DNA from: Haplodiscus bocki
Taxonomy: Eukaryota
Assembly: GCA_965655095.1 (NCBI GenBank)
Contig: OZ296648.1
Location: forward strand, 104,346,001 to 104,410,000
DNA length: 64,000 bases
Direction of reading: 5' to 3'
The notes beneath the pieces were generated by a model, which did no database searches, was not told where the DNA came from, and saw only the letters and a program-made list of their open reading frames with translations. The translations under genes and the position numbers were made by a program. Of the stretch, positions 4,191 to 64,000 are shown piece after piece; position 1 is the first letter of the stretch; each line of letters starts with the position of its first letter.

Positions 4191-4259
4191 GAAGACTTAT
4201 TAGATCAACCATCAGCAAAGAAAAGTTCACCAAAGAAAAACCGATTCAAAACTAAACAC

Positions 4260-4745: not shown

Positions 4746-4769
4746 TTTTAATCTAAATTAAGTAATAAC

Positions 4770-5985
4770 GTCAAAGTTATCTGAAAGATATGATGTAGAG
4801 AGATGAATTCTTAAATGTGATTAGAATCGCTATACACTTCCATCAGTAAATATAATAAACACTGTTAATTCTCAAATTGTTATTGATATAGCAAGAAAAG
4901 GTACAGTAAAATCTCCAAAAGATAGTTATTTAGATTTCCTCAACGAAAAAGTGAAAGACTTGTAGCTGCTGATAAAATTCGATTAGTTATATCAGGTCCA
5001 TTTGCTTAGTTTCGTGAAATAAAACTGACTAACAAAAGTGTAGGAAGTATGGATATCCTTGATGTACAAATTGTTAACAGCTAGTAAAGATGAAGAAGAA
5101 TTATCAAATGGATTTTGTAGGCTTCTCCAAAATCATACACAAGAATCAATCACCAAAAAAAGAATTAATGGAAAATTCAAGGTGAAGATTTTATCAAAAG
5201 ATGTTTTCGGTTTTGCTGAATATCGGGAGAATGCTACATATGGTTTAAGTTGAACATAAACAATGAAAAGAAATCATGAGATGTTGTTTCAAGTCGCGTC
5301 GAAGTAGAGGATGGGAAAACACTATGAAATATATTAGCTGGTATGTACATTACACTCGAAATATTACGCAACAAAACTTACTAAGCTAGAAGACCACAAA
5401 CAAAGCTCCACTGAAATGTTTTATATCCAAAGATCTGTTTTTGTAAGAGGTGTATAACAACAAAGTTATTGAATTTTTGAATTCAAGCTTAAAAATGTGG
5501 AACCGATGCTCCTATTTATGTGATAGTAGGATTCCAATAAAGGCAAAGATCCTCAACTCCTAAAAATAGATAACTCCCTCAAACCGATAGTTACTTTTGC
5601 GCCATGTAACATTGCGACAGGAAAAATCTACTTGATGCTACAAATTTTGATTTTGATGATCACGAACACTCTCAAGTTTATGAAGAAATTGAATCAGACT
5701 GTTGTTGCACACATTTAACTAAAGACAACATTCTTCAACCAAAGATATCCCAGAAAGATTTAGAACCAACAAAGTTGGTGAATAAGGTTTTGCTACTATT
5801 GATGTTGGATGAAAGTACATGACTTTAATATACGACACCAGAAAGCAATTCTTAACCTATAGGTGAAATTTGTTTTCCGAGAATGTCTAGGCTGTAGTTG
5901 GGTATGCATTAGTATTATTCACAAAACTAATAACAATTAGCAGTGATGGAAAAATTTCAGTTCCATGGTTCAGATTCAAATAGAT
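4770..5985 (+). pseudogene. Polinton/adintovirus-like major capsid protein remnant
   Basis: Reads ILKCD..RYT..INTVNSQIVIDI..DSYLDF, then the track ORF 5059-5253 (MYKLLTASKD...GKFKVKILSKDVFGFAEYRENATYGLS), then WYVH, TEMFYIQRSVF, PIYVIVGFQ, LTKDNILQP and GYALVL...ISSDG. This matches the order of motifs I recall for this capsid family. Confidence 0.75.
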
Positions 5986-6049
5986 TTATAAATTTTCCTT
6001 TGTCCTGAAAAGTTCATTGCTAATTTATCAACTTTTCGTGAAAACAATT

Positions 6050-7060: not shown

Positions 7061-7069
7061 GATTTTTGG

Positions 7070-8360: not shown

Positions 8361-8898
8361 AAAAATACTAGTTAATACTATTTTTCCGAAATTAATATAT
8401 TTCACAGTACGTGTTGAAAAATGAATAATTTTATATATCATATGTCAGGAAAATTCCCAATCAAACATTTCGTTATTTAGTTTTAGGCCACCCATATTAG
8501 TGGCCTCGAACAAAGGCACAGAGGATTCGAGATTCGTCGGGGGAAATTCTCCCCTGATTTTCAAAAAATGTTTTTCCACGACTCAACAAACGTTCAACTT
8601 TTGAAGTGCGATGAATTCACTTCAGATCGATGACTAATTATCACTGATTAACAAGTATATTTCATATCTCAGGATTGAAAATGAACAAATTTGATAAATA
8701 TTGCAATAAAATTTCAGAAAAAGTAATTTCGACGCCTTGGAAATTGTTTTTTAGGCGACGAATAGTCGGGTGGTCTGTCTCATTTGTCAAAAAGGAGTAG
8801 TAAAGAAAAATACGGATTTTTGAACCTTGCTCTAAAATCCGCAATTTTCGAGTACTACTATCTCCCCAAAAAAACACGCAAAAACTATCCTTCGAAAA

Positions 8899-8996
8899 AT
8901 ACCCATCATAAAATAAGTAATAAAACATGCTTTTCCTCAACGACTATACGTTCTTTCGTAAAAGCATGTTTTTTTTACTTATTATATGATGGGTAT
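8899..8996. repeat. Long inverted repeat (hairpin core, about 34 of 36 bp paired) present in every array unit; extends imperfectly 8878-9018
   Basis: ATACCCATCATAAAATAAGTAATAAAACATGCTTTT, a 25-nt spacer, then AAAAGCATGTTTTTTTTACTTATTATATGATGGGTAT. Confidence 0.9.
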
Positions 8997-9190
8997 ATTT
9001 GTGATAGATATTTTTGTAATGCACAAAAATTTACTTTTTTTCATCAATAAAATCATACACATACTTTACAGCAGTGTGATAAAGATATACTTTCTGCGTA
9101 CTTCATGCTGGATTATTTTGCATGCAAACACATTACTGGCCAATTCTATCGAACATTCCTGGTGAAGAACGTAATTTATTACGTTGTGTA

Positions 9191-9246
9191 CAGATTCTCT
9201 GGTGCACCATCTTTTCCCCTCCCGATGGCATACACCAGCGAATCTG
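9191..9246. other. 56-nt GC-rich stem-loop in the GC-richer island (9065-9350) of every unit; candidate structured RNA
   Basis: CAGATTC-T-CTGGTG-CA-CCATC [TTTTCCCCTCCC] GATGG-CATA-CACCAG-C-GAATCTG gives 7+6+5 Watson-Crick pairs. No RNA family recognised. Confidence 0.4.
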
Positions 9247-10224
9247 AGCTAATGCACCATAACTATCTGCTTGAGATGGGGGATAGGCTGACTAGGCCTT
9301 TCAGGTGACAATAACCAGTCGAAAATCCATAATTTGGCCTAAATCAGTATCAGTGTTTTTTTACCACATTGTCACAGTTGACAAACAAATGAATAAGAAA
9401 TTTTATTTTTACTTTTTTCAACTTTAAAATGTGAGATTTTTCAATTGACTCAATTGTAAAAATACAAAAACATCACTGCCTGTCAATTTATTCCTGGGTC
9501 AGGACTGATTTTTCGGAAGGATTGATTTTCAAAATACAATTTTGTGTAATTTCTTTGCCGCGTACTCACAAATCAGCATTTAGGTGAAGATTTCCGAGCG
9601 GCAGGAAAAGTGTAAAAAAAAAATAAAAAGATGATGATAGACTTCGATTTTTTTTCAATTCAGTGAAATAGGAGCAGTGCGAACGGTTTGTTGTTCTACA
9701 AAAATTTATTATTTTTATATAAATGTTCCATTTTCAAAAAAGGTCCATCAATGTCCCGTTTATGAATTAAAATTTTACATTCAATGCAAAAATATTAAGA
9801 GGTGAAATACTTTAACCTAAGTGAATTTTAGCATTTTCAAAATGATTTCGTGTACTTTCAGATTTTTTATTTTCCTTTTCAACATGAAAATCACCAAATT
9901 TACAGAAATAAAAGGTTTTCCTTACAAGTCTAAAAACTTTTACAAAATTATCTTTAGATAACAAATGACAAGCCAGAGGTGGATTAATAACAACTTGGCC
10001 AACAAGGCTACAAAACAAACTTCTCATATTACTTTTTCCAACAATTTTTTTAAATAAAAATAATTCCAATATCATTATATTTTGAAATTTTTCCTCTAAA
10101 TTTCTGATTAGGAGTTAGATTCCCTTCTATATTAGAATCTAATACAATTTTCTGAATACAATACCATCTCTTTCAATATTTAGAAACAACATTCAATTTT
10201 ATTGAAAAAAAAACATATTGGCAA

Positions 10225-10930
10225 ACGAAATATGTTCTATAAAAAATACATTTATGTTTCAAACCTGAAGAACTTTAACAACTCTCATAATCATTGATGA
10301 CCACACTGACGAAAAGCATACACACTTGGCTGCTCCAAACGGATAACACATTTTTGATTAAAAACTGCTAAAACTTCATTCGCTCCATAAAACTTTCTTC
10401 ATCTGCACTGTCCGAATTCTCCTCAGAATTATTGTTATCTTTAGCATCTATCGCACAATATGAAAGTATTTTTTCTATTTTCACAAATGAAAATTTTCAA
10501 CATTTTGATACATGATAATCATAAGGATCAAAAGAATTATCTGTTGTTTTCAACATTGTGCCTTCTTCAAAGTTATGTTTTCGATAAAATCAAAAAGATT
10601 AAATGAAAATTATGTATTAGTTTCTCCGATAGCTATTGGATATGATGTCATACTAGTGCCCATATTAAATATGCAATTTAATTTTTTTCCTTCTGTGATG
10701 AAAGTGTAAAAACCATACCCTGAAAAATGCATCCATTTACTTTCAGTCTCTTTGCGACCATAATTCAAGCAAAATGGTATTTCCATCAAAACAAGGATCG
10801 TCAAGAGCACCTGAAAAGTCTGTCATTTAACAAAATTGACTTGTTCCAATGAATGTTCTGTTAAGTTTCAAATTAACAAACGGCCCTCTAAGGTTATAGG
10901 TTTCATATTTATGAATTTTATTCTCATTAT
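10225..10930 (-). pseudogene. Viral-type hypothetical domain plus acidic linker plus C3HC4 RING finger (dead; one per array unit, unit 1 shown)
   Basis: Minus strand reads TFIGTSQFC*MTDFSGALDDPCFDGNTILLEL ... HFSGYGFYTF ... MGTSMTSYPIAIGE ... EEGTMLKTTDNSFDPYDYHVSKC, then acidic EENSDSADEE, then KCVIRLEQPSVYAFRQCGHQ*...ESC*...KCI.YRT. Confidence 0.65.
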
Positions 10931-11031
10931 CGATTGTTACTAGACAACGACTAAAAAAGTGATGTTATAATACATATAATTTAGATTTTTTAAACGTAGG
11001 TCTAAATTACAGTTGTATTTATATATTTCAA

Positions 11032-11390
11032 TGAGCTCTGACAACGTTATATCAAATACTTTTCTTTAAAACAGACATCAAAAACAGGAAATCATGACGC
11101 TAATTTGATATTATGACAATATAAACTAGATTTAAGGTCTCGATTTATTGAGATCAAATCTGACAATTCACAATCAACCAAAAAACAAATAGCATAACAA
11201 TTAGGTTAATCAGTTGCTACATTCACAAGATCAAAGCAACATCTCTAGTCCTTACAACAGAAAGAATACCAAAAGAAGAAATATCAACACCCAAGAATCT
11301 TCTGTGAACACAACTCAAAGTAAAGGTGGTAAAGGTGAGAATGTTTTTCTGCTAAAAAACTAATTGATAAAGGTTTTAATAAAAACTAAA
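11032..11390 (+). pseudogene. Helix-turn-helix protein remnant of viral/Polinton type (one per unit, unit 1 shown)
   Basis: Translates as SKTGNHDANLIL*QYKLDLRSRFIEIKSDNSQSTKKQIA*QLG*SVATF.R, an IAxxLGxSxxT HTH pattern with in-frame stops, followed by SSPYNRKNTKRR. Confidence 0.55.
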
Positions 11391-14300
11391 TGACGGAAGT
11401 TACAGAAACAACTAAAAACAATCTAAAAACACAAAAAATATAGAACTTATTGTTAATAAATATTCAGATAAATCCTAGAGAACACAATCTCAAAAATGGC
11501 AAAAGGCTTTAATCCAAAGAGGAACTTATGAACAAGCAATAGAAATAAAGGGTGAGACTATTGAAGATTTGGATAAAGAATTGAACTTATAGACAATAAA
11601 TTTAAGATTTAGCTGATAAAAAAGGAATTTCAGGTGAGCAAATTAGAAAAGATATCGCACGACCCAACGAACGTTCAACTTTTGAAGTACGATGAATTCA
11701 CTTCAGATCGATGACATATTTTTTACTGATTAAGAAGTATATTTTATATTCCAGGATTGAAAATGGATAAAATTGATACACTTATTGCAATAAATTACCA
11801 AAAACTAGTATTTTCGACGCTTTGGAATTTCTCGTCTCTTTCCAGGCGCCGAATAGTCGGGTGGTCTCATTTGTCAGAGAGGAGTGGTAGAGAAAAATAC
11901 GGATTTTTGAGCCTTGTTCTAAAATCCGGTTTTTTCGAGTAATACTACCTCACCAAAAGTTACGCAAAAACTATCCTTCAAAAAATACCCATCATAAAAT
12001 AAGTAATAAAACATGCTTTTCCTCAACGACAATACGTTCTTTCGTAAAAGCATGTTTTTTTTACTTATTATATGATGGGTATATTTGTGAGAGATATTTT
12101 TGTAATGCACAAAAATTTACTTTTTTTCATCAATAAAATCATACACATACTTTACAGCAGTGGGATAAAGATATATTTTCTGCGTACTTCATGCTGGATT
12201 ATTTTGCATGCAAACACATTACTGGCCAATTCTATCGAACATTCCTGGTGAAGAACGTAATTTATTACGTTGTGTACAGATTCTCTGGTGCACCATCTTT
12301 TTCCCTCCCGATGGCATACACCAGCGAATCTGAGCTAATGCACCATAACTATCTGCTTGTGAGATGGGGGATAGGCTGACTAGGCCTTTCGGGTGACATT
12401 AACCAGTCGAAAATTCATAATTTGGCCTAAACCAGTATCAGTGTTTTTTTACCACATTGTCACAGTTGACAAACAAATGAATAAGAAATTTTATTTTTAC
12501 TTTTTTGAACTTTAAAATGTGAGATTTTTCAATTGACTCAATTGTAAAATTACAAAAACATCACTGCCTGTCAATTTATTCCTGGGTCAGGACTGATTTT
12601 TCGGAAGGATTGATTTTCAAAATACAATTTTGTGTAATTTCTTTGCCGCGTACTCACAAATCAGCATTTAGTTGAAGATTTGCGAGCGGCAGGAAAAGTG
12701 TAAAAAAAAGATGATGATAGACTTCGATTTTTTTTCAATTCAGTGAAATAGGAGCAGTGCGAACGGTTTGTTGTTCTACAAAAATTTATTATTTTTATAT
12801 AAATGTTCCATTTTCAAAAAAGGTCCATCAATGTCCCGTTTATGAATTAAAATTTTACATTCAATGCAAAAATATTAAGAGGTGAAATACTTTAACCTAA
12901 GTGAATTTTAGCATTTTCAAAATGATTTCGTGTACTTTCAGATTTTTTATTTTCCTTTTCAACATGAAAATCACCAAATTTACAGAAATAAAAGGTTTTC
13001 CTTACAAGTCTAAAAACTTTTACAAAATTATCTTTAGATAACAAATGACAAGCCAGAGGTGGATTAATAACAACTTGGCCAACAAGGCTACAAAACAAAC
13101 TTCTCATATTACTTTTTCCAACAATTTTTTTAAATAAAAATAATTCCAATATCATTATATTTTGAAATTTTTCCTCTAAATTTCTGATTAGGAGTTAGAT
13201 TCCCTTCTATATTAGAATCTAATACAATTTTCTGAATACAATACCATCTCTTTCAATATTTAGAAACAACATTCAATTTTATTGAAAAAAAAACATATTG
13301 GCAAACGAAATATGTTCTATAAAAAATACATTTATGTTTCAAACCTGAAGAACTTTAACAACTCTCATAATCATTGATGACCACACTGACGAAAAGCATA
13401 CACACTTGGCTGCTCCAAACGGATAACACATTTTTGATTAAAAACTGCTAAAACTTCATTCGCTCCATAAAACTTTCTTCATCTGCACTGTCCGAATTCT
13501 CCTCAGAATTATTATCTTTAGCATCTATCGCACAATATGAAAGTATTTTTTCTATTTTCACAAATGAAAATTTTCATTTTGATACATGATAATCATAAGG
13601 ATCAAAAGAATTATCTGTTGTTTTCAACATTGTGCCTTCTTCAAAGTTATGTTTTCGATAAAATCAAAAAGATTAAATGAAAATTATGTATTAGTTTCTC
13701 CGATAGCTATTGGATATGATGTCATACTAGTGCCCATATTAAATATGCAATTTAATTTTTTTCCTTCTGTGATGAAAGTGTAAAAACCATACCCTGAAAA
13801 ATGCATCCATTTACTTTCAGTCTCTTTGCGACCCTAATTCAAGCAAAATGGTATTTCCATCAAAACAAGGATCGTCAAGAGCACCTGAAAAGTCTGTCAT
13901 TTAACAAAATTGACTTGTTCCAATGAATGTTCTGTTAAGTTTCAAATTAACAAACGGCCCTCTAAGGTTATAGGTTTCATATTTATGAATTTTATTCTCA
14001 TTATCGATTGTTACTAGACAACGACTAAAAAAGTGATGTTAAAATACATATAATTTAGATTTTTTAAACGTAGGTCTAAATTACAGTTGTATTTATATAT
14101 TTCAATGAGCTCTGACAACGTTATATCAAATACTTTTCTTTAAAACAGACATCAAAAACAGGAAATCATGACGCTAATTTGATATTATGACAATATAAAC
14201 TAGATTTAAGGTCTCGATTTATTGAGACCAAATCTGACAATTCACAATCAACCAAAAAACAAATAGCATAACAATTAGGTTAATCAGTTGCTACATTCAC

Positions 14301-17300
14301 AAGATCAAAGCAACATCTCTAGTCCTTACAACAGAAAGAATACCAAAAGAAGAAATATCAACACCCAAGAATCTTCTGTGAACACAACTCAAAGTAAAGG
14401 TGGTAAAGGTGAGAATGTTTTTCTGCTAAAAAACTAATTGATAAAGGTTTTAATAAAAACTAAATGACGGAAGTTACAGAAACAACTAAAAACAATCTAA
14501 AAACACAAAAAATATAGAACTTATTGTTAATAAATATTCAGATAAATCCTAGAGAACACAATCTCAAAAATGGCAAAAGGCTTTAATCCAAAGAGGAACT
14601 TATGAACAAGCAATAGAAATAAAGGGTGAGACTATTGAAGATTTGGATAAAGAATTGAACTTATAGACAATAAATTTAAGATTTAGCTGATAAAAAAGGA
14701 ATTTCAGGTGAGCAAATTAGAAAAGATATCGCACGACCCAACGAACGTTCAACTTTTGAAGTACGATGAATTCACTTCAGATCGATGACATATTTTTTAC
14801 TGATTAAGAAGTATATTTTATATTCCAGGATTGAAAATGGATAAAATTGATACACTTATTGCAATAAATTACCAAAAACTAGTATTTTCGACGCTTTGGA
14901 ATTTCTCGTCTCTTTCCAGCCGCCGAATAGTCGGGTGGTCTCATTTGTCAGAGAGGAGTGGTAGAGAAAAATACGGATTTTTGAGCCTTGTTCTAAAATC
15001 CGGTTTTTTCGAGTAATACTACCTCACCAAAAGTTACGCAAAAACTATCCTTCAAAAAATACCCATCATAAAATAAGTAATAAAACATGCTTTTCCTCAA
15101 CGACAATACGTTCTTTCGTAAAAGCATGTTTTTTTTACTTATTATATGATGGGTATATTTGTGAGAGATATTTTTGTAATGCACAAAAATTTACTTTTTT
15201 TCATCAATAAAATCATACACATACTTTACAGCAGTGGGATAAAGATATATTTTCTGCGTACTTCATGCTGGATTATTTTGCATGCAAACACATTACTGGC
15301 CAATTCTATCGAACATTCCTGGTGAAGAACGTAATTTATTACGTTGTGTACAGATTCTCTGGTGCACCATCTTTTTCCCTCCCGATGGCATACACCAGCG
15401 AATCTGAGCTAATGCACCATAACTATCTGCTTGTGAGATGGGGGATAGGCTGACTAGGCCTTTCGGGTGACATTAACCAGTCGAAAATTCATAATTTGGC
15501 CTAAACCAGTATCAGTGTTTTTTTACCACATTGTCACAGTTGACAAACAAATGAATAAGAAATTTTATTTTTACTTTTTTGAACTTTAAAATGTGAGATT
15601 TTTCAATTGACTCAATTGTAAAATTACAAAAACATCACTGCATGTCAATTTATTCCTGGGTCAGGACTGATTTTTCGGAAGGATTGATTTTCAAAATACA
15701 ATTTTGTGTAATTTCTTTGCCGCGTACTCACAAATCAGCATTTAGGTGAAGATTTCCGAGCGGCAGGAGAAGTGTAAAAAAATAAAAAGATGATGATAGA
15801 CTTCGATTTTTTTTCAATTCAGTGAAATAGGAGCAGTGCGAACGGTTTGTTGTTCTACAAAAATTTACTATTTTTATATAAATGTTCCATTTTCAAAAAA
15901 AAGTCCATCAATTTCCCGTTTATGAATTAAAATTCTACATTCAATGCAAAAATATTAAGAGGTGAAATACTTTAACCTAAGTGAATTTTAGCATTTTCAT
16001 AATGATTTCGTGTACTTTCAGATTTTTTTTCCTTTTCAACATGAAAATCACCAAATTTACAGAAATAAAAGGTTTTCCTTACAAGTCTAAAAACTTTTAC
16101 AAAATTATCTTTAGATAAAAAATGACAAGCCAGAGGTGGATTAATAACAACTTGGCCAACAAGGCTACAAAACAAACTTCTCATCTTACTTTTTCCAACA
16201 ATTTTTTTAAATAAAAATTATTCCAATATCATTATATTTTGAAATTTTTCCTCTAAATTTCTGATTAGGAGTTAGATTCCCTTCTATATTAGAATCTAAT
16301 ACAATTTTCTGAATACAATACCATCTCTTTCAATATTTAGAAACATTCAATTTTATTGAAAAAAAAACATATTGGCAAACGAAATATGTTCTATAAACAA
16401 TACATTTATGTTTCAAACCTGAAGAACTTTAACAACTCTCATAATCATTGATGACCACACTGACGAAAAGCATACACACTTGGCTGCTCCAAACGGATAA
16501 CACATTTTTGATTAAAAACTGCTAAAACTTCATTCGCTCCATAAAACTTTATTCATCTGCACTGTCCGAATTCTCCTCAGAATTATTGTTATCTTTAGCA
16601 TCTATCGCACAATATGAAAGTATTTTTTCTATTTTCACAAATGAAAATTTTCAACATTTTGATACATGATAATCATAAGGATCAAAAGAATTATCTGTTG
16701 TTTTCAACATTGTGCCTTCTTCAAAGTTATGTTTTCGATAAAATCAAAAAGATTAAATGAAAATTATGTATTAGTTTCTCCGATAGCTATTGGATATGAT
16801 GTCATACTAGTGCCCATATTAAATATGCAATTTAATTTTTTTCCTTCTGTGATGAAAGTGTAAAAACCATACCCTGAAAAATGCATCCATTTACTTTCAG
16901 TCTCTTTGCGACCCTAATTCAAGCAAAATGGTATTTCCATCAAAACAAGGATCGTCAAGAGCACCTGAAAAGTCTGTCATTTAACAAAATTGACTTGTTC
17001 CAATGAATATTCTGTTAAGTTTCAAATTAACAAACGGCCCTCTAAGGTTATAGGTTTCATATTTATGAATTTTATTCTCATTATCGATTGTTACTAGACA
17101 ACGACTAAAAAAGTGATGTTAAAATACATATAATTTAGATTTTTTAAACGTAGGTCTAAATTACAGTTGTATTTATATATTTCAATGAGCTCTGACAACG
17201 TTATATCAAATACTTTTCTTTAAAACAGACATCAAAAACAGGAAATCATGACGCTAATTTGATATTATGACAATATAAACTAGATTTAAGGTCTCGATTT

Positions 17301-20300
17301 ATTGAGACCAAATCTGACAATTCACAATCAACCAAAAAACAAATAGCATAACAATTAGGTTAATCATTTGCTACATTCACAAGATCAAAGCAACATCTCT
17401 AGTCCTTACAACAGAAAGAATACCAAAAGAAGAAATATCAACACCCAAGAATCTTCTGTGAACACAACTCAAAGTAAAGGTGGTAAAGGTGAGAATAGTT
17501 TTTCTGCTAAAAAACTAATTGATAAAGGTTTTAATAAAAACTAAATGACGGAAGTTACAGAAACAACTAAAAACAATCTAAAAACACAAAAAATATAGAA
17601 CTTATTGTTAATAAATATTCAGATAAATCCTAGAGAACACAATCTCAAAAATGGCAAAAGGCTTTAATCCAAAGAAGAACTTATGAACAAGCAATAGAAA
17701 TAAAGGGTGAGACTATTGAAGATTTGGATAAAGAATTGAACTTATAGACAATAAATTTAAGATTTAGCTGATAAAAAAGGAATTTCAGGTGAGCAAATTA
17801 GAAAAGATATCGCACGACCCAACGAACGTTCAACTTTTGAAGTACGATGAATTCACTTCAGATCGATGACATATTTTTTACTGATTAAGAAGTATATTTT
17901 ATATTCCAGGATTGAAAATGGATAAAATTGATACACTTATTGCAATAAATTACCAAAAACTAGTATTTTCGACGCTTTGGAATTTCTCGTCTCTTTCCAG
18001 GCGCCGAATAGTCGGGTGGTCTCATTTGTCAGAGAGGAGTGGTAGAGAAAAATACGGATTTTTGAGCCTTGTTCTAAAATCCGGTTTTTTCGAGTAATAC
18101 TACCTCACCAAAAGTTACGCAAAAACTATCCTTCAAAAAATACCCATCATAAAATAAGTAATAAAACATGCTTTTCCTCAACGACAATACGTTCTTTCGT
18201 AAAAGCATGTTTTTTTTACTTATTATATGATGGGTATATTTGTGAGAGATATTTTTGTAATGCACAAAAATTTACTTTTTTTCATCAATAAAATCATACA
18301 CATACTTTACAGCAGTGGGATAAAGATATATTTTCTGCGTACTTCATGCTGGATTATTTTGCATGCAAACACATTACTGGCCAATTCTATCGAACATTCC
18401 TGGTGAAGAACGTAATTTATTACGTTGTGTACAGATTCTCTGGTGCACCATCTTTTCCCCTCCCGATGGCATACACCAGCGAATCTGAGCTAATGCACCA
18501 TAACTATCTGCTTGTGAGATGGGGGATAGGCTGACTAGGCCTTTCAGGTGACATTAACCAGTCGAAAATTCATAATTTGGCCTAAACCAGTATCAGTGTT
18601 TTTTTACCACATTGTCACAGTTGACAAACAAATGAATAAGAAATTTTATTTTTACTTTTTTGAACTTCAAAATGTGAGATTTTTCAATTGACTCAATTGT
18701 AAAATTACAAAAACATCACTGCATGTCAATTTATTCCTGGGTCAGGACTGATTTTTCGGAAGGATTGATTTTCAAAATACAATTTTGTGTAATTTCTTTG
18801 CCGCGTACTCACGAATCAGCATTTAGGTGAAGATTTCCGAGCGGCAGGAGAAGTGTAAAAAAAATTAAAAGATGATGATAGACTTCGATTTTTTTTCAAT
18901 TCAGTGAAATAGGAGCAGTGCAAACGGTTTGTTGTTCTACAAAAATTTATTATTTTTATATAAATGTTCCATTTTCAAAAAAAGTCCATCAATTTCCCGT
19001 TTATGAATTAAAATTTTACATTCAATGCAAAAATATTAGGAGGTGAAATACTTTAACCTAAGTGAATTTTAGCATTTTCATAATGATTTCGTGTACTTTC
19101 AGATTTTTTATTTTCCTTTTCAACATAAATATCACAAAATTTACAGAAATAAAAGGTTTTCCTTACAAGTCTAAAAACGTTTACAAAATTATCTTTAGAT
19201 AAAACATGACAAGCCAGAGGTGGATTAATAACAACTTGGTCAACAAGGCTACAAAACAAACTTCTCATATTACTTTTTCCAACACTTTTTTTAAATAAAA
19301 ATAATTCCAATATCATTATATTTTGAAATTTTTCCTCTAAATTTCTGATTAGGAGTTAGATTCCCTTCTATATTAGAATCTAATATAATTTTCTGAATAC
19401 AATATCATCTCTTTCATTATTTAGAAACAACATTCAATTTTATTGAAAAAAAAACATATTGGCAAACGAAATATGTTCTATAAACAATACATTTATGTTT
19501 CAAACCTGAAGAACTTTAACAACTCTCATAATCATTGATGACCACACTGACGAAAAGCATACACACTTGGCTGCTCCAAACGGATAACACATTTTTGATT
19601 AAAAACTGCTAAAACTTCATTCGCTCCATAAAACTTTATTCATCTGCACTGTCCGAATTCTCCTCAGAATTATTGTTATCTTTAGCATCTATCGCACAAT
19701 ATGAAAGTATTTTTTCTATTTTCACAAATGAAAATTTTCAACATTTTGATACATGATAATCATAAGGATCAAAAGAATTATCTGTTGTTTTCAACATTGT
19801 GCCTTCTTCAAAGTTATGTTTTCGATAAAATCAAAAAGATTAAATGAAAATTATGTATTAGTTTCTCCGATAGCTATTGGATATGATGTCATACTAGTGC
19901 CCATATTAAATATGCAATTTAATTTTTTTCCTTCTGTGATGAAAGTGTAAAAACCATACCCTGAAAAATGCATCCATTTACTTTCAGTCTCTTTGCGACC
20001 CTAATTCAAGCAAAATGGTATTTCCATCAAAACAAGGATCGTCAAGAGCACCTGAAAAGTCTGTCATTTAACAAAATTGACTTGTTCCAATGAATATTCT
20101 GTTAAGTTTCAAATTAACAAACGGCCCTCTAAGGTTATAGTTTTCATATTTATGAATTTTATTCTCATTATCGATTGTTACTAGACAACGACTAAAAAAG
20201 TGATGTTAAAATACATATAATTTAGATTTTTTAAACGTAGGTCTAAATTACAGTTGTATTTATATATTTCAATGAGCTCTGACAACGTTATATCAAATAC

Positions 20301-50300: not shown

Positions 50301-53300
50301 ATGTTCTATAAACAATACATTTATGTTTCAAACCTGAAGAACTTCAACAACTCTCAATCATTGATGACCACACTGACGAAAAGCATACACACTTGGCTGC
50401 TCCAAACGGATAACACATTTTTGATTAAAAACTGCTAAAACTTCATTCGCTCCATAAAACTTTCTTCATCTGCACTGTCCGAATTCTCCTCAGAATTATT
50501 GTTATCTTTAGCATCTATCGCACAATATGAAAGTATTTTTTCTATTTTCACAAATGAAAATTTTCAACATTTTGATACATGATAATCATAAGGATCAAAA
50601 GAATTATCTGTTGTTTTCAACATTGTGCCTTCTTCAAAGTTATGTTTTCGATAAAATCAAAAAGATTAAATGAAAATTATGTATTAGTTTCTCCGATAGC
50701 TATTGGATATGATGTCATACTAGTGCCCATATTAAATATGCAATTTAATCTTTTTCCTTCTGTGATGAAAGTGTAAAAACCATACCCTGAAAAATGCATC
50801 CATTTACTTTCAGTCTCTTTGCGACCCTAATTCAAGCAAAATGGTATTTCCATCAAAACAAGGATCGTGAAGAGCACCTGAAAAGTGTCATTTAACAAAA
50901 TTGACTTGTTCCAATGAATATTCTGTTAAGTTTCAAATTAACAAACGGCCCTCTAAGGTTATAGGTTTCGTATTTATGAATTTTATTCTCATCATCGATT
51001 GTTACTAGACAACGACTAAAAAAGTGATGTTAAAATACATATAATTTAGATTTTTTTAACGTAGGTCTAAATTAGAGTTGTATTTAAATATTTCAATGAG
51101 CTCTGATAACTTTATATCAAACACTTTTCTTTGAAACAGACATCAAAAACAGGAAATCATGACGCTAATTTGATATTATGACAATATAAACTAGATTTAA
51201 GGTCTCGATTTATTGAGACCAAATCTGACAATTCACAATCAACCAAAAAACGAATAGCATAACAATTAGGTTAATCAGTTGCTACATTCACAAGATCAAA
51301 TCAACATCTCTAGTCCTTACAACAGAAAGAATACCAAAAGAAGAAATATCAACACCCAAGAATCTTCTGTGAACACAACTCAAATTAAAGGTGGTAAAGG
51401 TGAGAATAGTTTTTTTGCTAAAAAAATAATTGATAAAGGTTTCAATAAAAACTAAAGGACGCAAGTTACAGAAACAATTAAAAACAATCTAAAAACACAA
51501 AAAATATGGAACCTATTGTTAATAAATATTCAGATAAAGCCTAGAGAACACAATCTCAAATATGGCAAAAGGCTTTAATCCAAAGAAGAATTTATGAACA
51601 AGCAATAGAAATAAAGGGTGAGACTATTGAAGATTTGGATAAAGAATTGAACTTATAGACAATAAATTTAAGATTTAGCTGATAAAAAAGGAACTTCAGA
51701 TGAGCGAATTAGAAAAGATATCGCACGACCCAACGAACGTTCAACTTTTGAAGTACGATGAATTCACTTCAGATCGATGACATATTTTTTACTGATTAAG
51801 AAGTATATTTTATATTCCAGGATTGAAAATGAATAAAATTGATACACTTATTGCAATAAGTTACCAAAAACTAGTATTTTCGACGCTTTGGAATTTCTCG
51901 TCTCTTTCCAGGCGCCGAATAATCGGGTGGTTTCATTTGTCAGAGAGGAGTGGTAGAGAAAAATACGGATTTTTGAGCCTTGTTCTAAAATCCGGTTTTT
52001 TCGAGTAATACTACCTCACCAAAAGTTACGCAAAAAATATCATTCAAAAATATACGCACCATAAAATAAGTAAAAATATGTTTTTACTCAATCACAAAAC
52101 GTTCTTCCGCAAAAGCATGGTTTTTTCAACTTATTTTCTAATGGGTATATTGTTGAAAGATATTTTTTAATGCACAAAAATTTATTTTTCATCAATGAAA
52201 TCATACACATACTTTATAGCAGTGGGATAAAGACATATTTTCTGTGTACTTCATGCTGGATTACTTTGCATGCAAGCACATTACTGGCCAATTCTATCGA
52301 ACATTCCTGGTGAAGAACGTAATTTGATACGTTGTGTACAGATTCTCTGGTGCACCATCTTTTCCAATCCCGATGGCATACACCAGCGAATCTGAGCTAA
52401 TGCACCATAACTATCTGCTTGTGAGATGGGGGATAGGCTGACTAGGCCTTTCAGGTGACATTAACCAGTCGAAAATCCATAATTTGGCCTAAACCAGTAT
52501 CAGTGTTTTTTTTACCACATTGTCACAGTTGACAAACAAATGAATAAGAAATTTTATTTTTACTTTTTTCAACTTTAAAATGTGAGATTTTTCAATTGAC
52601 TCAATTGTAAAATTACAAAAACATCACTGCATGTCAATTTATTCCTGGGTCAGGACTGATTTTTCGGAAGGATTGATTTTCAAAATAAAATTTTGTGTAA
52701 TTTCTTTGCCGCGTACTCACAAATCAGCATTTAGTTGAAGATTTGCGAGCGGCAGGAAAAGTGTAAAAAAAAGATGATGATAGACTTCGATTTTTTTTCA
52801 ATTCAGTGAAATAGGAGCAGTGCGAACGGTTTCTTGTTCTACAAAAATTTATTATTTTTATATAAATGTTCCATTTTCAAAAAAAGTCCATCAATTTCCC
52901 GTTTATGAATTAAAATTTTACATTCAATGCAAAAATATTAAGAGGTGAAATACTTTAACCTAAGTGAATTTTAGCATTTTCATAATGATTTCGTGTCCTT
53001 GCAGATTTTTTATTTTCCTTTTCAACATAAATATCACAAAATTTACAGAAATAAAAGGTTTTCCTTACAAGTCTAAAAACCTTTACAAAAATTATCTTTA
53101 GATGAAAAATGACAAGCCAGAGGTGGATTAATAACAACTTGGCCAACAAGCCTACAAAACAAACTTCTCATATTACTTTTTCCAACACTTTTTTTAAATA
53201 AAAATAATTCCAATATCATTATATTTTGAAATTTTTCCTCTAAATTTTTGATTAGGAGTTAGATTCCCTTCTATATTAGAATCTAATATAATTTTTTGAA

Positions 53301-56300
53301 TACAATACCATCTCTTTCAATATTTAGAAACAACATTCAATTTTATTGAAAAAAAACATATTGGCAAACGAAATATGTTCTATAAACAATACATTTATGT
53401 TTCAAACCTGAAGAACTTCAACAACTCTCAATCATTGATGACCACACTGACGAAAAGCATACACACTTGGCTGCTCCAAACGGATAACACATTTTTGATT
53501 AAAAACTGCCAAAACTTCATTCGCTCCATAAAACTTTCTTCATCTGCACTGTCCGAATTCTCCTCAGAATTATTGTTATCTTTAGCATCTATCGCACAAT
53601 ATGAAAGTATTTTTTCTATTTTCACAAATGAAAATTTTCAACATTTTGATACATGATAATCATAAGGATCAAAAGAATTATCTGTTGTTTTCAACATTGT
53701 GCCTACTTCAAAGTTATGTTTTCGATAAAATCAAAAAGATTAAATAAAAATTATGTATTAGTTTCTCCGATAGCTATTGGATATGATGTCATACTAGTGC
53801 CCATATTAAATATGCAATTTAATTTTTTTCCTTCTGTGATGAAAGTGTAAAAACCATACCCTGAAAAATGCATCCATTTACTTTCAGTCTCTTTGCGACC
53901 CTAATTCAAGCAAAATGGTATTTCCATCAAAACAAGGATCGTCAAGAGCACCTGAAAAGTCTGTCATATATACAAAATTGACTTTTATTCTCATTATCGA
54001 TTGTTACTAGACAACGACTAAAAAATGATGTTAAAATACGTTTAATTTAGATTTTTTTACCGTAGGTCTAAATTATAGTTGTATTTAAATAGTTCAATGA
54101 GCTCTGATAACTTTATATCAAATACTTTTCTTTAAAACAGACATCAAAAACAGGAAATCATGACGCTAATTTGATATTATGACAATATAAACTAGATTTA
54201 AGGTCTCGATTTATTGAGGCCAAATCTGACAATTCACAATGAACCAAAGAACAAATTGCATAACAATTAGGTTAATCAGTTGCTACATTCACATGATCAA
54301 ATCAACATCTCTAGTCCTTACAACAGAAAGAATACCAAAAGAAGAAATATCAACACCCAAGAATCTTCTGTGAACACAACTCAAATTAAAGGTGGTAAAG
54401 GTGAGAATAGTTTTTCTGCTAAAAAGTTAATTGATAAAGGTTTTAATAAAAACTAAATGACGCAAGTTACAGAAACAATTAAAAACAATCTAAAAACACA
54501 AACAATATAGAACCTATTGTTAATAAATATTCAGATAAAGCCTAGAGAACACAATCTCAAATATGGCAAAAGGCTTTAATCCAAAGAAGAATTTATGAAC
54601 AAGCAATAGAAATAAAGGTTGAGACTATGGAAGATTTGGATAAAGAATTGAACTTATAGACAAAAAATTTAAGATTTAGCTGATAAAAAAGGAATTTCAG
54701 ATGAGCGAATTAGAAAAGATATCGCACGACCCAACGAACGTTCAACTTTTGAAGTACGATGAATTCACTTCAGATCGATGACATACTTTTTACTGATTAA
54801 GAAGTATATTTTATATTCCAGGATTGAAAATGAATAAAACTGATACACTTATTGCAATAAATTACCAAAAACTAGTATTTTCGACGCTTTGGAATTTCTC
54901 GTCTCTTTCCAGGCGACGAATAGTCGGGTAGTCTCATTTGTCATAGAGGAGTGGTAGAGAAAAATACGGATTTTTGAGCCTTGTTCTAAAATCCGGTTTT
55001 TTCGAGTAATACTACCTCATCAAAAGTTACGCAAAAAATATCCTTCAAAAATATACGCACCATAAAATAAGTAAAAAATATGCTTATACTCAATCACAAA
55101 ACGTTCTTTCGTAAAAGCATGGTTTTTTTAAACTTATTTTCTAATGGGTATATTGTTGAAAGATAATTTTAATGCACAAAAATTTACTTTTTTTCATCAA
55201 TAAAATCATACACATACTTTACAGCAGTAGGATAAAGGCATATTTTCTGTGTACTTCATGCTGGATTACTTTGCATGCAAGCACATTACTGGCCAATTCT
55301 ATCGAACATTCCTGGTGAAGAACGTAATTTGATACGTTGTGTACAGATTCTCTGGTGCACCATCTTTTCCCCTCCCGATGGCATACACCAGCGAATCTGA
55401 GCTAATGCACCATAACTATCTGCTTGTGAGATGGGGGATAGGCTGACTAGGCCTTTCAGGTGACATTAACCAGTCGAAAATCCATAATTTGGCCTAAACC
55501 AGTATCAGTGTTTTTTTTACCACATTGTCACAGTTGACAAACAAATGAATAAGAAATTTTATTTTCACTTTTTTCAACTTTAAAATGTGAGATTTTTCAA
55601 TTGACTCAATTGTAAAGTTACAAAAACATCACTGCATGTCAATTTATTCCTGGGTCAGGACTGATTTTTCGGAAGGATTGATTTTCAAAATACAATTTTG
55701 TGTAATTTCTTTGCCGCGTACTCACAAATCAGCATTTAGTTGAAGATTTGCGAGCGGCAGGAAAAGTGTAAAAAAAAGATGATGATAGACTTCGATTTTC
55801 TTTTCAATTCAGTGAAATAGGAGCAGTGCGAACGGTTTGTTGTTCTACAAAAATTTATTATTTTTATATAAATGTTCCATTTTCAAAAAAAGTCCGTCAA
55901 TTTTCCGTTTATGAATTAAAATTTTACATTCAATGCAAAAAGATTAGGAGGTGAAATACTTTAACCTAAGTGACTCTCAGCATTTTCATAATGATTTCGT
56001 GTACTTGCAGATTTTTTATTTTCCTGTTCAACATAAATATCACAAAATTTACAGAAATAAAAGGTTTTCCTTACAAGTCTAAAAAGGTTTACAAAATTAT
56101 CTTTAGATAAAACATGACAAGCCAGAGGTGGATTAAAAACAACTTGGTCAACAAGGCTACAAAACAAACTTCTCATATTACTTTTTCCAACACTTTTTTT
56201 AAATAAAAAAAATTCCAATATCATTATATTTTGAAATTTTTCCTCTAAATTTCTGATTAGGAGTTAGATTCCCTTCTATATTAGAATCCAATATAATTTT

Positions 56301-59300
56301 TTGAATACAATACCATCTCTTTCAATATTTAGAAACAACATTCAATTTTATTGAAAAAAAAACATATTGGCAAACGAAATATGTTCTATAAACAATACAT
56401 TTATGTTTCAAACCTGAAGAACTTTAACAACTCTCAATCATTGATGACCACACTGACGAAAAGCATACACACTTGGCTGCTCCAAACGGATAACACATTT
56501 TTGATTAAAAACTGCTAAAACTTCATTCGCTCCATAAAACTTTCTTCATCTGCACTGTCCGAATTCTCCTCAGAATTATTATCTTTAGCATCTATCGCAC
56601 AATATGAAAGTATTTTTTCTATTTTCACAAATGAAAATTTTCAAAATTTTGATACATGATAATCATAAGGATCAAAAGAATTATCTGTTGTTTTCAACAT
56701 TGTGCCTTCTTCAAAGTTATGTTTTCGATAAAATCAAAAAGATTAAATGAAAATTATGTATTAGTTTCTCCGATAGCTATTGGATATGATGTCATACTAG
56801 TGCCCATATTAAATATGCAATTTAATTTTTTTCCTTCTCTGATGAAAGTGTAAAAACCATACCATGAAAAATGCATCCATTTACTTTCAGTCTCTTTGCG
56901 ACCCTAATTCAACCAAAATGGTATTTCCATCAAAACAAGGATCGTCAAGAGCACCTGAAAAGTCTGTCATATATACAAAATTGACTTTTATTCTCATTAT
57001 CGATTGTTACTAGACAACGACCAAAAAATGATGTTAAAATACGTATAATTTAGATTTTTTTACCGTAGGTCTAAATTATAGTTGTATTTAAATATTTCAA
57101 TGAGCTCTGATAACTTTATATCAAATACTTTTCTTTAAAACAGACATCAAAATCAGGAAATCATGACGCTAATTTGATATTATGACAATATAAACTAGAT
57201 TTAAGGTCTCGATTTATTGAGGCCAAATCTGACAATTCACAATCAACCAAAAAAACAAATAGCATAACAATTAGGTTAATCAATTGGTACATTCACAAGA
57301 TCAAATCAACATCTCTAGTCCTTACAACAGAAAGAATACCAAAAGAAGAAATATCAACACCCAAGAATCTTCTGTGAACACAACTCAAAGTAAAGGTGGT
57401 AAAGGTGAGAATAGTTTTTCTGCTAAAAAACTAATGATAAAGGTTTTAATAAAAACTAAATGACGGAAGTTACAGAAACAACTAAAAACAATCTAAAAAC
57501 ACAAAAAATATAGAACTTATTGTTAATATATATTCAGATAAAGCCTAGAGAACACAATCTCAAATATGGCAAAAGGCTTTAATCCAAAGAAGAATTTATG
57601 AACAAACAATAGAAATAAAGGTGAGACTATTGAAGATTTGGATAAAGAATTGAACTTATAGACAATAAATTTAAGATTTAGCTGATAAAAAAGGAATTTC
57701 AGATGAGCGAATTAGAAAAGATATCGCACGACCCAACGAACGTTCAACTTTTGAAGTACGATGAATTCACTTCAGATCGAAGACAAATTTTTTAATGATT
57801 AAGAAGTACATTTTATATTCCAGGATTGAAAATGGATAAAATTGATACTTATTGCAATAAATTACCAAAAACTAGTATTTTCGACGCTTTGGAACTTCTC
57901 GTCTCTTTCCAGGCGACGAATAGTCGGCTGGTCTCATTTGTCAGAGAGGAGTAGTAGAGAAAAATACGCATTTTTGAGCCTTGTTCTAAAATCCGGTTTT
58001 TTCGAGTAATACTACATCACTAAAAGTTACGCAAAAAATTCCTTCAAAAATATACGCACCATAAAATAAGTAAAAAATATGCTTTTACTCAATCACAAAA
58101 CGTTCTTCCGTAAAAGCATGGTTTTCAAAACTTATTTTGTAATTGGTATATTGTTGGAAGATATTTTTTAATGCACAAAAAATTACTTTTTTTCATCAAT
58201 AAAATCATACACATACTTTACAGCAGTGGGAAAAAGACGATAAATTCGCTGTACTTCATGCTGGAGTATTTTGCACGAAAAAACTTTACTGACCAACTCT
58301 ATCTAACATTCCTGGTGAAGAACGTAATTTAATACGTTGTGTACAGATTCTCTGGTGCAACCATCTTTTCCCCTCCCGATGGAATACACCAGCGAATCTC
58401 AGCTCATTCACCACAACTGTCTGCTTGTGAGATGGTGGATAGGCTGACTAGGCCTTTCAGGTGACATAAACCGGTCGAAAAACCATAATTTGGCCCAAAC
58501 CAGTATCAACCGAATCATTTCAGCTAAAAACAGCTTTCTAATTTTTTCATCGATTTTGGTAGAAACAAAAGTTTTTACCACATTGTAACTGTTTAAAAAT
58601 GAATTAACAAGCAAATGAATGGCAAAATTTTGATTTCTTTTCAACTTTTAAAAGTGAGATTTTTCAATAAAATGTAAAATTACAAAAACATCATTGCATG
58701 TAAATTTATTATTGGCGGGAGGGGGAGGGATTTTTCGGAAGGACTGATTTTTCGAATACAGTTTTGTCTAAATTATTTTCCGCGTACTCACAAATCAGCA
58801 TTTAAGTGAAGATTTGTGTGTAGCAGGAACATTTTACAAAAATAAAAATATGATGATGGACTTGGATTTTTTCAATTCAGTGAAACAGAAGCAAGGGGAA
58901 CGGTTCGCTGTTCTAAAAAAATTTAATACTTGTATATAAAAGTTCCGTTGTCAAAAAAAGTCAAACAATTTTCCGTTTAAGAATTAATATTTTACATACA
59001 ATGCAAAAATATTAGGAGGTGAATTACTTTAACCTAAGTGACTTCTAGCATTTTCATATTGATCTCCTGTACTTTCAGATTTCTTATTTTCCTTTTCAAC
59101 ATGAATATCACCAAATTTACAGAAAAAAAAGGTTTTCCTTACAAGTCTAAAAACGTTTACAAAATTATCTTTAGATAAAACATGACAAGCCAGAGGTGGA
59201 TTAATAACAACTTCGTCAACAAGGCTACAAAACAAACTTCTCATATTACTTTTTCCAACACTTTTTTAATTAAAAATAATTCCAATATCATTATATTTTT

Positions 59301-59439
59301 CCTCTAAATTTCTGATTAGGAGTTAGATTCCCTTCTATATTAGAATCTAATATAATTTTCTGAATACAATACCATCTCTTTGAATATTTAGAAACAACAT
59401 TCAATTTTATTGAAAAAAAAACATATTGGCAAACGAAAC

Positions 59440-59560
59440 ATGTTCTACAAACAATACATCTCCGTTCCAAACCTAAAGAAGTGTAACAACTCTCATAAAC
59501 TCAATGATGACCACATTGACAAAAAGCATAAACACTTGGCTGCTCTAAACACAATTTTGG
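59440..59560 (-). pseudogene. Best-preserved RING finger remnant (divergent unit 17)
   Basis: Reads CLEQPSVYAFCQCGHH*VYESCYTSLGLERRCIVCRT in one frame. Confidence 0.7.
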
Positions 59561-62500
59561 TTAATAAGTTTTACAATTTCATTCCTTCCATCAAAACTTT
59601 CTTCATTTGCACTGTTCGAATTCTCCTCAGAACTATTGTCATCATTATCATCTATCACAAAAGATGGATGTACCTTTTGTCTATTTTCATGAGCGAAAAA
59701 TTTCCACATTTTGATACATGATAATCATAAGGATCAAAAGAATTATCTGTTGTTTTCAACATTGTGCCTTCTTCAAAGTTATGTTTTCTATAAAATCAAA
59801 AAAATTAAATGAAAAAAATGTATTAGTTTCTCCAATAGCTATTGGATATGATTTCATACTAGTGCCCATACTAAATATGCAATTTAATTTTTTTCCTTCT
59901 CTGATGAAAGTGTAAAAACCATACCCTGAAAAATGCATCCATTTACTTTCAGTCTCTTTGCGACCCTAATTCAAGCAAAATGGTAGTTCCATCAAAACAA
60001 GGATCGTCAAGAGCACCTGAAAAGTCTGTCATATAACAAAAATGACTTTTATTCTCATTATCATTGTTACTAGACAACGACTAAAAAATGATGTTAAAAT
60101 ACATATAATTTAGATTTTTTAAACGTAGGTCTAAATTACAGTTGTATTTATATATTTCAATGAGCTCTGACAACGTTATATCAAATATTTTTCTTTAAAA
60201 CAGACATCAAAAACAGGAAATCATGACGCTAATTCGATATTTTGACAACATAAACTAGATTTAAGGTCTCGATTTATTAGGACCAAATCTGACAATTCAC
60301 AATCAACCAAAAAACAAATAGCATAACAATTAGGTTAATCAATTGGTACATTCACAAGATCAAATCAACATCTCTAGTCCTTACAACAGAAAGAATACCA
60401 AAGGAAGAAATATCAACACCCAAGAATCTTTTGAGAACACAACTCAAATAAAAGGTGGTAGAGGTTAGAATAGTTTTTCTGCTATAAAATTAATTGATAA
60501 AGGTTTTAATAGAAACTAAATGACGGAAGTTACAGAAACAATTGAAAACAATCTAAAAACACAAAAAATATAGAACTTATTGTTAATATATATTCAGATA
60601 AAGCCTAGAGAACACAATCTCAAATATGGCAAAAGGCTTTAATCCAAAGAAGAATTTATGAACAAGCAATAGAAATAAAGGGTGAGACTATTGAAGATTT
60701 GGATAAAGAATTGAACTTATAGACAATAAATTTAAGATTTAGCTGATAAAAAAGGAATTTCAGATGAGCGAATTAGAAAAGATATCGCACGACCCAACGA
60801 ACGTTCAACTTTTGAAGTACGATGAATTCACTTCAGATCGATGACATATTTTTTAATGATTAAGAAGTATATTTTATATTCCAGGATTGAAAATGGATAA
60901 AATTGATACACTTATTGCAATAAATTACCAAAAACTAGTATTTTCGACGCTTTGGAATTTCTCGTCTCTTTCGAGGCGACGAATAGTCGGCTGGCCTCAT
61001 TTGTCAGAGAGGAGTAGTAGAGAAAAATACGGATTTTTGAGCCTTGTTCTAAAATCCGGTTTTTTCGAGTAATACTACCTCAGTAAAAATTACGCAAAAA
61101 AAATCCTTCAAAAATATACGCACCATAAAACAAGTAAAAAATATGCTTATACTGAATCACAAAACGTTCTTTCGTAAAAGCATGGTTTTTTTAAACTTAT
61201 TTTCTAATGGGTATATTGTTAAAAGATAATTTTAATGCACAAAAATTTACTTTTTTTCATCAATAAAATCATACACATACTTTACAGCAGTGGGATAAAG
61301 ACATATTTTCTGTGTACTTCATGCTGGATTACTTTGCATGCAAGCACATTACTGGCCAATTCTATCGAACATTCCTGGTGAAGAACGTAATTTGATACGT
61401 TGTGTACAGATTCTCTGGTGCACCATCTTTTCCCCTCCGGATGGCATACACCAGCGAATCTGAGCTAATGCACCATAACTATCTGCTTGTGAGATGGGGG
61501 ATAGGCTTACTAGACCTTTCAGGTGACATTAACCAGTCGAAAATCCATAATTTGGCCTAAACCAGTATCAGTGTTTTTTTCATCACATTGTCACAGTTGA
61601 CAAACAAATGAATAAATTTTATTTTTACTTTTTTCAACTTTAAAATGTGAGATTTTTCAATTGACTCAATTGTAAAGTTACAAAAACATCACTGCATGTC
61701 AATTTATTCCTGGGTCAGGACTGATTTTTCGGAAGGATTGATTTTCAAAATACAATTTTGAGTAATTTCTTTGCCGCGTACTCACAAATCAGCAATTAGT
61801 TGAAGATTTGCGAGCGGCAGGAAAAGTGTAAAAAAAAGATGATGATAGACTTCGATTTTCTTTTCAATTCAGTGAAATAGGAGCAGTGCGAACGGTTTGT
61901 TGTTCTACAAAAATTTATTATTTTTATATAAATTTTCCATTTTCAAAAAAAGTCCATCAATTTTCCGTTTATGAATTAAAATTTTACATTCAATGCAAAA
62001 ATATTAGGAGGTGAAATACTTTAACCTAAGTGACTTTCAGCATTTTCATAATGATTTCGTGTACTTGCGGATTTTTTATTTTCCTGTTCAACATAAATAT
62101 CACAAAATTTACAGAAATAAAAGGTTTTCCTTACAAGTCTAAAAAGGTTTACAAAATTATCTTTAGATAAAACATGACAAGCCAGAGGTGGATTAAAAAC
62201 AACTTGGTCAACAACGCTACAAAACAAACTTCTCATATTACTTTTTCCAACACTTTTTTTTAAATAAAAAAAATTCCAATATCATTATATTTTGAAATTT
62301 TTCCTCTAAATTTCTGATTAGGAGTTAGATTCCCTTCTATATTAGAATCCAATATAGTTTTTTGAATACAATACCATCTCTTTCAATATTTAGAAACAAC
62401 ATTCAATTTTATTGAAAAAAAAACATATTGGCAAACGAAATATGTTCTATAAACAATACATTTATGTTTCAAACCTGAAGAACAACTCTCAATCATTGAT

Positions 62501-64000
62501 GACTACACTGACGAAAAGCATACACACTTGGCTGCTCCAAACGGATAACACATTTTTGATTAAAAACTGCTAAAACTTCATTCGCTCCATAAAACTTTCT
62601 TCATCTGCACTGTCCGAATTCTCCTCAGAATTATTGTTATCTTTAGCATCTATCGCACAATATGAAAGTATTTTTTCTATTTTCACAAATGAAAATTTTC
62701 AACATTTTGATACATGATAATCATAAGGATCAAAAGAATTATCTGTTGTTTTCAACATTGTGCCTTCTTCAAAGTTATGTTTTCGATAAAATCAAAAAGA
62801 TTAAATGAAAAATATGTATTAGTTTCTCCGATAGCTATTGGATATGATGTCATACTAGTGCCCATATTAAATATGCAATTTAATTTTTTTCCTTCTCTGA
62901 TGAAAGTATAAAAACCATACCATGAAAAATGCATCCATTTACTTTCAGTCTCTTTGCGACCCTAATTCAAGCAAAATGGTATTTCCATCAAAACAAGGAT
63001 CGTCAAGAGCACCTGAAAAGTCTGTCATATAACAAAAATGACTTTTATTCTCATTATCGATTGTTACTAGACAACGACTAAAAAATGATGTTAAAATACA
63101 TATAATTTAGATTTTTTAAACGTAGGTCTAAATTACAGTTGTATTTATATATTTCAATGAGCTCTGACAACGTTATATCAAATAATTTTCTTTAAAACAG
63201 ACATCAAAAACAGGAAATCATGACGCTAATTCGATATTATGACAATATAAACTAGATTTAAGGTCTCGATTTATTAGGACCAAATCTGACAATTCACAAT
63301 CAACCAAAAAACAAATAGCATAACAATTAGGTTAATCAATTGGTACATTCACAAGATCAAATCAACATCTCTAGTCCTTACAACAGAAAGAATACCAAAA
63401 GAAGAAATATCAACACCCAAGAATCTTTTGAGAACACAACTCAAAGTAAAGGTGGTAAAGGTTAGAATAGTTTTTCTGCTAAAAAATTAATTGATAAAGG
63501 TTTTGATAGAAACTAAATGACGGAAGTTACAGAAACAATTAAAAACAATCTAAAAACACAAAAAAAATAGAACTTATTCTTAATATATATTCAGATAAAG
63601 CCTAGAGAACACAATCTCAAATATGGCAAAAGGCTTTAATCCAAAGAAGAATTTATGAACAAGCAAAAGAAATAAAGGGTGAGACTATTGAAGATTTGGA
63701 TAAAGAATTGAATTTATAGACAATAAACTTAAGATTTAGCTGATGAAAAAAGAATTTCAGATGAGCAAATTAGAAAAGATATCGCACGACCCAACGAACG
63801 TTCAACTTTTGAAGTACGATGAATTCACTTCAGATCGAAGACAAATTTTTTAATGATTAAGAAGTACATTTTATATTCCAGGATTGAAAATGGATAAAAT
63901 TGATACTTATTGCAATAAATTACCAAAAACTAGTATTTTCGACGCTTTGGAACTTCTCGTCTCTCCAGGCGACGAATAGTCGGCTGGTCTCATTTGTCAG

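Follow-up and report, generated by a model that had tools for sequence, protein, structure and literature searches.

Satellites can arise by tandem amplification of whole transposable elements or of their sub-segments, inverted repeats included, according to two reviews (PMC9659126, PMC12628747), and further studies provide specific cases. The maize repeats CRM1TR and CRM4TR consist of the terminal repeat of a centromeric Ty3/gypsy element together with its adjacent region, with locus variants shaped by gene conversion (PMC3648361), Tetris TIR-220 of Drosophila virilis is a transposon-derived satellite (PMC9659126), and tandem transposons have been described as a satellite source (PMC5932611). 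For the virus-like Polintons (Mavericks), inverted-repeat remnants at the eri-6/7 locus of C. elegans act as direct repeats that mediate rearrangement (PMC11414722). Here, we analyzed a stretch of 64,000 nucleotides of Haplodiscus bocki (assembly GCA_965655095.1, contig OZ296648.1, positions 104,346,001 to 104,410,000; hereafter the window, whose numbering is used throughout) that contains part of a tandem array. Comparison with dispersed copies shows that each of the 25 full units joins 219 bp of host flank to the left end of one dead Polinton. Unequal exchange and gene conversion, without selection, are the likely means by which the array grew. The main texts of the two reviews name neither Polinton nor Maverick, no Polinton-derived satellite is described in the available sections of PMC9248874 and PMC13130569, and none was found in open-access papers, supplements and subscription papers lying outside this scope. 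If neutral, the array would be a clear, fully assembled case of a satellite derived from a transposon end, with a history that can be read copy by copy.

The array begins at 8577 and runs head to tail with a period of ~3.08 kb, so that 18 complete units and the first 216 bp of the next fit into the window. In the assembly, it comprises 25 full units and a 357-bp stub (~77 kb, C1:104,354,577-104,431,692, on the contig of the window) and gives way to unrelated DNA ~21.7 kb beyond the window. The array lies roughly halfway along the largest chromosome-scale contig (at 104.4 of 197.9 Mb). An earlier note, made from the letters of the window, had described a macrosatellite of at least 19 copies from 8577, and this array proved to be real. 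Tandem Repeats Finder is blind to it, as its longest period is 500, and an Rfam scan of window positions 1-12000 gave no match. A genome search with the RING region returned 403 first-look candidates; among the best 40 scored, 25 were copies from the array, and no copy outside the array exceeded ~82% identity among the candidates scored (best 40 per DNA search).

Table 1 Features of the array, its first unit and the neighboring element (window positions).
Feature	Position	Strand	Remarks
Tandem array, unit ~3.08 kb	8577..64000, running on to 85692	+	Genome search and neighboring stretches
Host-flank part of unit 1	8577..8795	.	Right portion of a separate ~400-bp dispersed repeat (8350-8730) plus ~65 bp
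Left terminal inverted repeat of the old Polinton	8796..9640 (inner end approximate)	+	Starts AGTAGTA at 8796
Hairpin 1, terminal 65 nt of the element	8796..8860	.	z -5.3
Hairpin 2, subterminal palindrome (~135 nt) within the inverted repeat	8881..9015	.	z -11.0 (folded 8876-9020)
Small-ORF (open reading frame) remnant, old Polinton subfamily	9812..10114	-	Dispersed counterparts without library match
Dead Polinton accessory gene, N-terminal domain and C3HC4 RING	10230..10985	-	Frameshifts and stops, including ~10291
Dead Polinton helix-turn-helix (HTH) gene	11060..11450 (3' end approximate)	+	Stops at ~11114 and ~11207
Start of the next Polinton ORF, truncated by the unit junction	11450..11657	+	tblastn E 2e-5
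Separate decayed Polinton remnant (small ORF 2267-2461, capsid gene 4774-5953)	2267..5953	+	Outside the array

Judged by its matches elsewhere in the genome, one unit (unit 1, 8577-11657, 3081 bp) is 219 bp of host flank followed by the contiguous left 2.86 kb of a single old Polinton. This one element end makes up 93% of the unit (2862/3081 bp), which carries, in order, the flank, one inverted repeat, the small ORF, the RING gene on the minus strand, the HTH gene on the plus strand and the start of the next gene (Table 1). Approximately 60% of the unit derives from coding sequence, and both the RING and HTH remnants matched Polinton ORFs by tblastn. At ten of ten dispersed loci, chosen as the best RING-region matches, 8796-11657 was covered collinearly (63-97%) by a single copy, one of which aligned across 97% of it, and the dispersed loci stay alike for kilobases past the point where the unit ends. 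These results bore out the Polinton origin, the proportion of dead coding sequence and the gene strands given in the earlier note. Because 8796/8875-9640 matches both element ends in inverted orientation, as observed in four of seven extended old copies (L009x, L010x, L014x, L016x), it is the terminal inverted repeat. Its outer limit is shared by three dispersed copies (L016, L063, L064) that start at the same base as the unit terminus, with AGTAGTA. Polintons follow a rule of a 6-bp target-site duplication and an AG-type terminus. In L016, the ends read AGTAGT and are flanked by a 6-bp target-site duplication, and a copy on C1 also has a 6-bp duplication; the founder element has no right end in the array, and its own target-site duplication is not visible.

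The earlier note had pictured viral fragments joined to separate hairpin modules. Such a composite unit was rejected, as dispersed single copies span the same stretch collinearly and the hairpins lie within the element's own terminal inverted repeat. The decayed Polinton upstream of the array was likewise rejected as its continuation, being located before the left terminus of the unit, and no continuation of the element beyond the fourth ORF of the unit was found within 18 kb downstream. The ~400-bp dispersed repeat in the host flank crosses the left edge of the array (L060-L062 match 8350-8728 at ~67%). At the unit junction, no clear microhomology was observed against three dispersed copies, which are too diverged to decide.

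Family members in this genome carry the inverted repeats, 6-bp duplications, capsid, ATPase, integrase and polymerase of Polintons/Mavericks. In contrast, the unit has one inverted repeat and accessory genes, with neither a core gene nor a right end and with all frames dead, and is thus not a complete element; it forms head-to-tail, multi-kilobase units from part of an element that are locally homogenized, as in a macrosatellite. Unlike in CRM1TR and CRM4TR (PMC3648361), the parent here is a Polinton rather than a centromeric Ty3/gypsy element, and the 3.08-kb unit includes host flank and dead genes. The array was also not begun by a double insertion, since host flank lies inside the unit. At eri-6/7, a pair of repeats has been recruited to the trans-splicing of a host gene (PMC11414722), whereas the present array has no evident host gene or function.

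The genes in the unit were dead before it multiplied. The RING stop after the CGHQ motif, counted by alignment column across all copies, is present in 25/25, in a region where the two copy types described below (A and B) differ by ~15%; both HTH stops are likewise present in 25/25 copies. Out-of-frame read-through stops following frameshifts were left out of the lesion count. Since the RING stop is common to all 25 copies across two haplotypes 15-20% apart, gene death preceded amplification. The same order had been proposed from the window alone, together with the view that amplification was not for protein dosage, and both hold, the genes being already dead before copying. The small ORF was considered as a possible conserved gene; its frame is not open in B-type copies, and A/B changes fall 18/11/12 across the three codon positions, giving no sign of purifying selection, and this candidate was rejected.

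Comparison of all units (u01-u25) revealed two haplotype blocks, with u01-u16 and u18 of type A, u19-u25 of type B and u17 a mosaic. The types differ by ~9% overall; divergence reaches ~10-20% (mostly 15-20%) across unit positions 400-1950 and stays at 1-7% outside them, whereas A copies 2-12 are only 0.1-1.5% apart. Mosaic copies (u14-u20 and u23-u25) occur at the border of the blocks, and the left edge is the most diverged part of the array: only in unit 1 do the first 200 bp differ by ~14%, and of the 54 changes private to this unit, 42 lie at or before position 318. In dispersed old copies, the two ends of one element diverge by 14-25%, similar to or more than the A/B split, which is consistent with death followed by duplication. 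A plausible history would begin with an old Polinton inserting at 8796 and decaying, after which 8577-11657 would have been duplicated in tandem and the two copies would have drifted ~14-20% apart. Exchanges near unit positions ~300 and ~1950 may then have produced the A and B types, each expanding later, and the remainder of the founding element may have been lost when the last copy suffered a deletion with its start in hairpin 2.

Both hairpin-forming segments reported in the earlier note exist (Table 1), with none of 200 shuffles equally stable for either, and both recur in dispersed Polinton ends. In a fold scan of unit 2 (12 shuffles per window), 8/50 windows reached z <= -3, hairpin 2 being the strongest. 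Within the array, half of the units carry decayed hairpins. Hairpin 1 folds at -12.5 kcal/mol in unit 1 and -3.5 kcal/mol in u19-u20, compared to -23 and -21 kcal/mol in L063 and L064, and hairpin 2 weakens from -36 to -40 kcal/mol in u01-u11 to -30 kcal/mol in u12-u13 and -15 to -24 kcal/mol in u14-u25, part of one arm being deleted in u19-u20. Selection on RNA hairpins was rejected, as hairpin 2 decays across the units of the array.

Several explanations for the array were weighed against these observations. The locus is a genuine macrosatellite of transposon origin, unusual in its source element and most likely neutral; in the earlier note, neutral amplification had been kept as an equal alternative, and unit make-up, divergence and hairpin decay make it the better reading. 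Four observations sit less easily with it: A-block hairpin 2 (-36 kcal/mol) is stronger than all eight old dispersed ends folded (-14 to -30.5 kcal/mol), the array has lasted long enough for its copies to drift 15-20% apart, as neutral turnover permits without requiring it, it lies near the middle of its chromosome-scale contig, and Piwi-domain proteins are encoded in the genome (13 matches above the cut-off). That the array arose in assembly is hardly credible and already largely refuted. The head-to-tail joint (11657>8577) was found in contigs from three of four DNA runs, all three from one sample that is possibly the assembly source, and the comparison with reads covers the joint and the left edge; against an artefact stand the structured differences between copies (up to ~10%), the joint contig, which in three runs has roughly 16-19x the depth of the left-edge contig, and a second DNA sample that contains 0.59 of the words of the unit at raised depth. 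It is very improbable that the array serves as a young centromere or heterochromatin seed: its mid-chromosome position and the element-end tandem repeats of maize centromeric retrotransposons (PMC3648361) would fit such a role, yet it spans only ~77 kb at what is, among the candidates scored, a single locus with ordinary repeat-rich flanks, and its CpG observed/expected ratio (0.78, compared to 0.85-0.93 nearby) gives no clear methylation-decay signal. A somewhat larger, still doubtful possibility is that the palindromic terminal repeat of the dead Polinton acted as a break or re-replication site that amplified itself into a macrosatellite, with the palindrome extruding or stalling forks and breaking, and repair or a trans-acting Polinton replication protein driving expansion to no host benefit. 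Three break points fall at hairpin 2 (unit 305-439), namely the limit of most changes private to unit 1 (<=318), the array end at 357 and the start of the u19-u20 deletion at 410, and the youngest and largest block carries the strongest hairpin. However, this coincidence, noticed post hoc, is a lead only, approximately ten further indel or switch points map away from hairpin 2 (612, 778, 829, 1038, ~1420-1700, ~1950, 2265-2339, 2810), and no hairpin marks the junction between units. Five other loci also show recent tandem duplication of parts of Polintons (C12, 11 kb, 97-99%; C3 and C8, periods ~19 and ~17.5 kb, 98%; L012; L009), in keeping with the neutral reading; C12, C3 and C8 were picked for closely spaced matches, so that recurrence is established and its rate is not, and these other duplications mostly cover internal genes. 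If end palindromes did drive amplification, tandem arrays built from virus ends would form systematically in Polinton-rich genomes, where they could titrate proteins that bind the ends of live Polintons.

The proposal at the center of the earlier note, that the array is maintained as a piRNA or siRNA source remembering and silencing Polintons, has in our assessment only a slim chance of being correct. Besides the Piwi-domain proteins, it would draw on the divergent genes, the likely promoter region between these two genes, and the hairpins, which could yield double-stranded RNA, and on matches to old subfamily copies (163-213/3049 26-mers within 3 mismatches in four old broken copies). Ungapped 26-mers of unit 2 (shuffled control 0) were compared with a sample of five younger Polintons, and close complementarity was absent, with only 12, 0, 5, 0 and 0 of 3049 matching within 3 mismatches, compared to 462-1508/3045 when the leftmost 3 kb of a single younger copy was scored against the other four. 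For the elements sampled, guides would be supplied far better by an ordinary recent insertion than by the array. The best non-array matches reached 73%, 78% and 81.6% over 571 bp of inverted repeat (40 candidates scored per search), the old copies that the array does match are broken, and the hairpins are inherited element ends decaying inside a unit that is not composite. piRNA traps have a make-up of many elements, and this array of one repeated unit does not. The earlier note had correctly placed a decayed Polinton near the array (capsid remnant 4774-5953, nearest piece 6869-7051), which carries little weight, being expected in a genome with 5228 first-look RING candidates; unrelated Polinton pieces adjoin several of the loci analyzed, and the 20 kb that precede the window contain no decayed Polinton. 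Overall, a memory function is unlikely. Piwi-domain genes make passive small RNAs from the array possible, and any such RNA would be passive repeat silencing. Compared with neutral expansion, which we favor, the array would matter more if palindromes drove amplification or if small RNAs were enriched.

The wider point of the locus is the very large and diverse Polinton load of the host genome, with old and young subfamilies and thousands of candidate copies. A protein search with the RING frame of a dispersed copy gave the 5228 candidates in 1.5 Gb, and most of the 150 scored were open frames of ~260 codons. Seven old dispersed loci were extended; in six of them, remnants of capsid, integrase and polymerase follow one another as in Polintons, and one ended after minor-capsid-like genes. 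Five younger loci with an open RING frame are elements of ~15-19 kb that arrange their left-end genes in the same order and each have some genes in fragments; inverted repeats of the family are ~0.6-1.1 kb. This gene set fits the Maverick core gene list in PMC9683012. Proteins of the younger elements matched PF21738 (double jelly roll), PF00665 (rve integrase), PF04665 (A32 ATPase) and PF13920 (RING), the Atlas result agreeing with Pfam for the capsid, and their HTH proteins gave weak matches to HTH models. The polymerase frames alone had no polymerase match, and two of them gave no match to PDB sequences; P0121, identical over the L007 frame of a neighboring element, carries PF03175, the protein-primed type B polymerase family. 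The protease and minor capsid of collinear relatives had no Pfam match and were presumptively assigned by position. A homologue search with the RING protein gave 649 matches, the 120 listed being unnamed ENA proteins, and no longer homologue of the L007 RING frame was found among 441 candidates. For the N-terminal domain (~170 residues) of the Polinton RING protein (L046:3610-4389), neither Pfam nor PHROG gave a match, and no Atlas match was confident (leads <0.9). Otherwise collinear Polintons (L032-L046 and the extended old loci) appear to differ in their polymerase module, of which two types occur ahead of the right inverted repeat, facing either way. One type includes an endonuclease VII-like stretch, and the difference may point to module swapping.

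Upstream of the array, 6869-7051 repeats, at 80% identity, the inverted Polinton piece at 2913-3094 and is followed by a short degenerate tandem repeat of 25-28 bp (7124-7275) and a short MITE-like element with inverted repeats and very high copy number (7420-8143; contig depth 10^4 to 10^5). Beyond the right edge of the array, at ~13 kb, lies a decayed Polinton with integrase and capsid in opposite orientation (L004:4396-7129). At L052-L053 (C3:67.295-67.308 Mb), a Polinton end abuts or sits within an old degenerate satellite array, and at L007:8917-9999 (minus strand) an exon of the host PP2A B56 regulatory subunit adjoins Polinton remnants.

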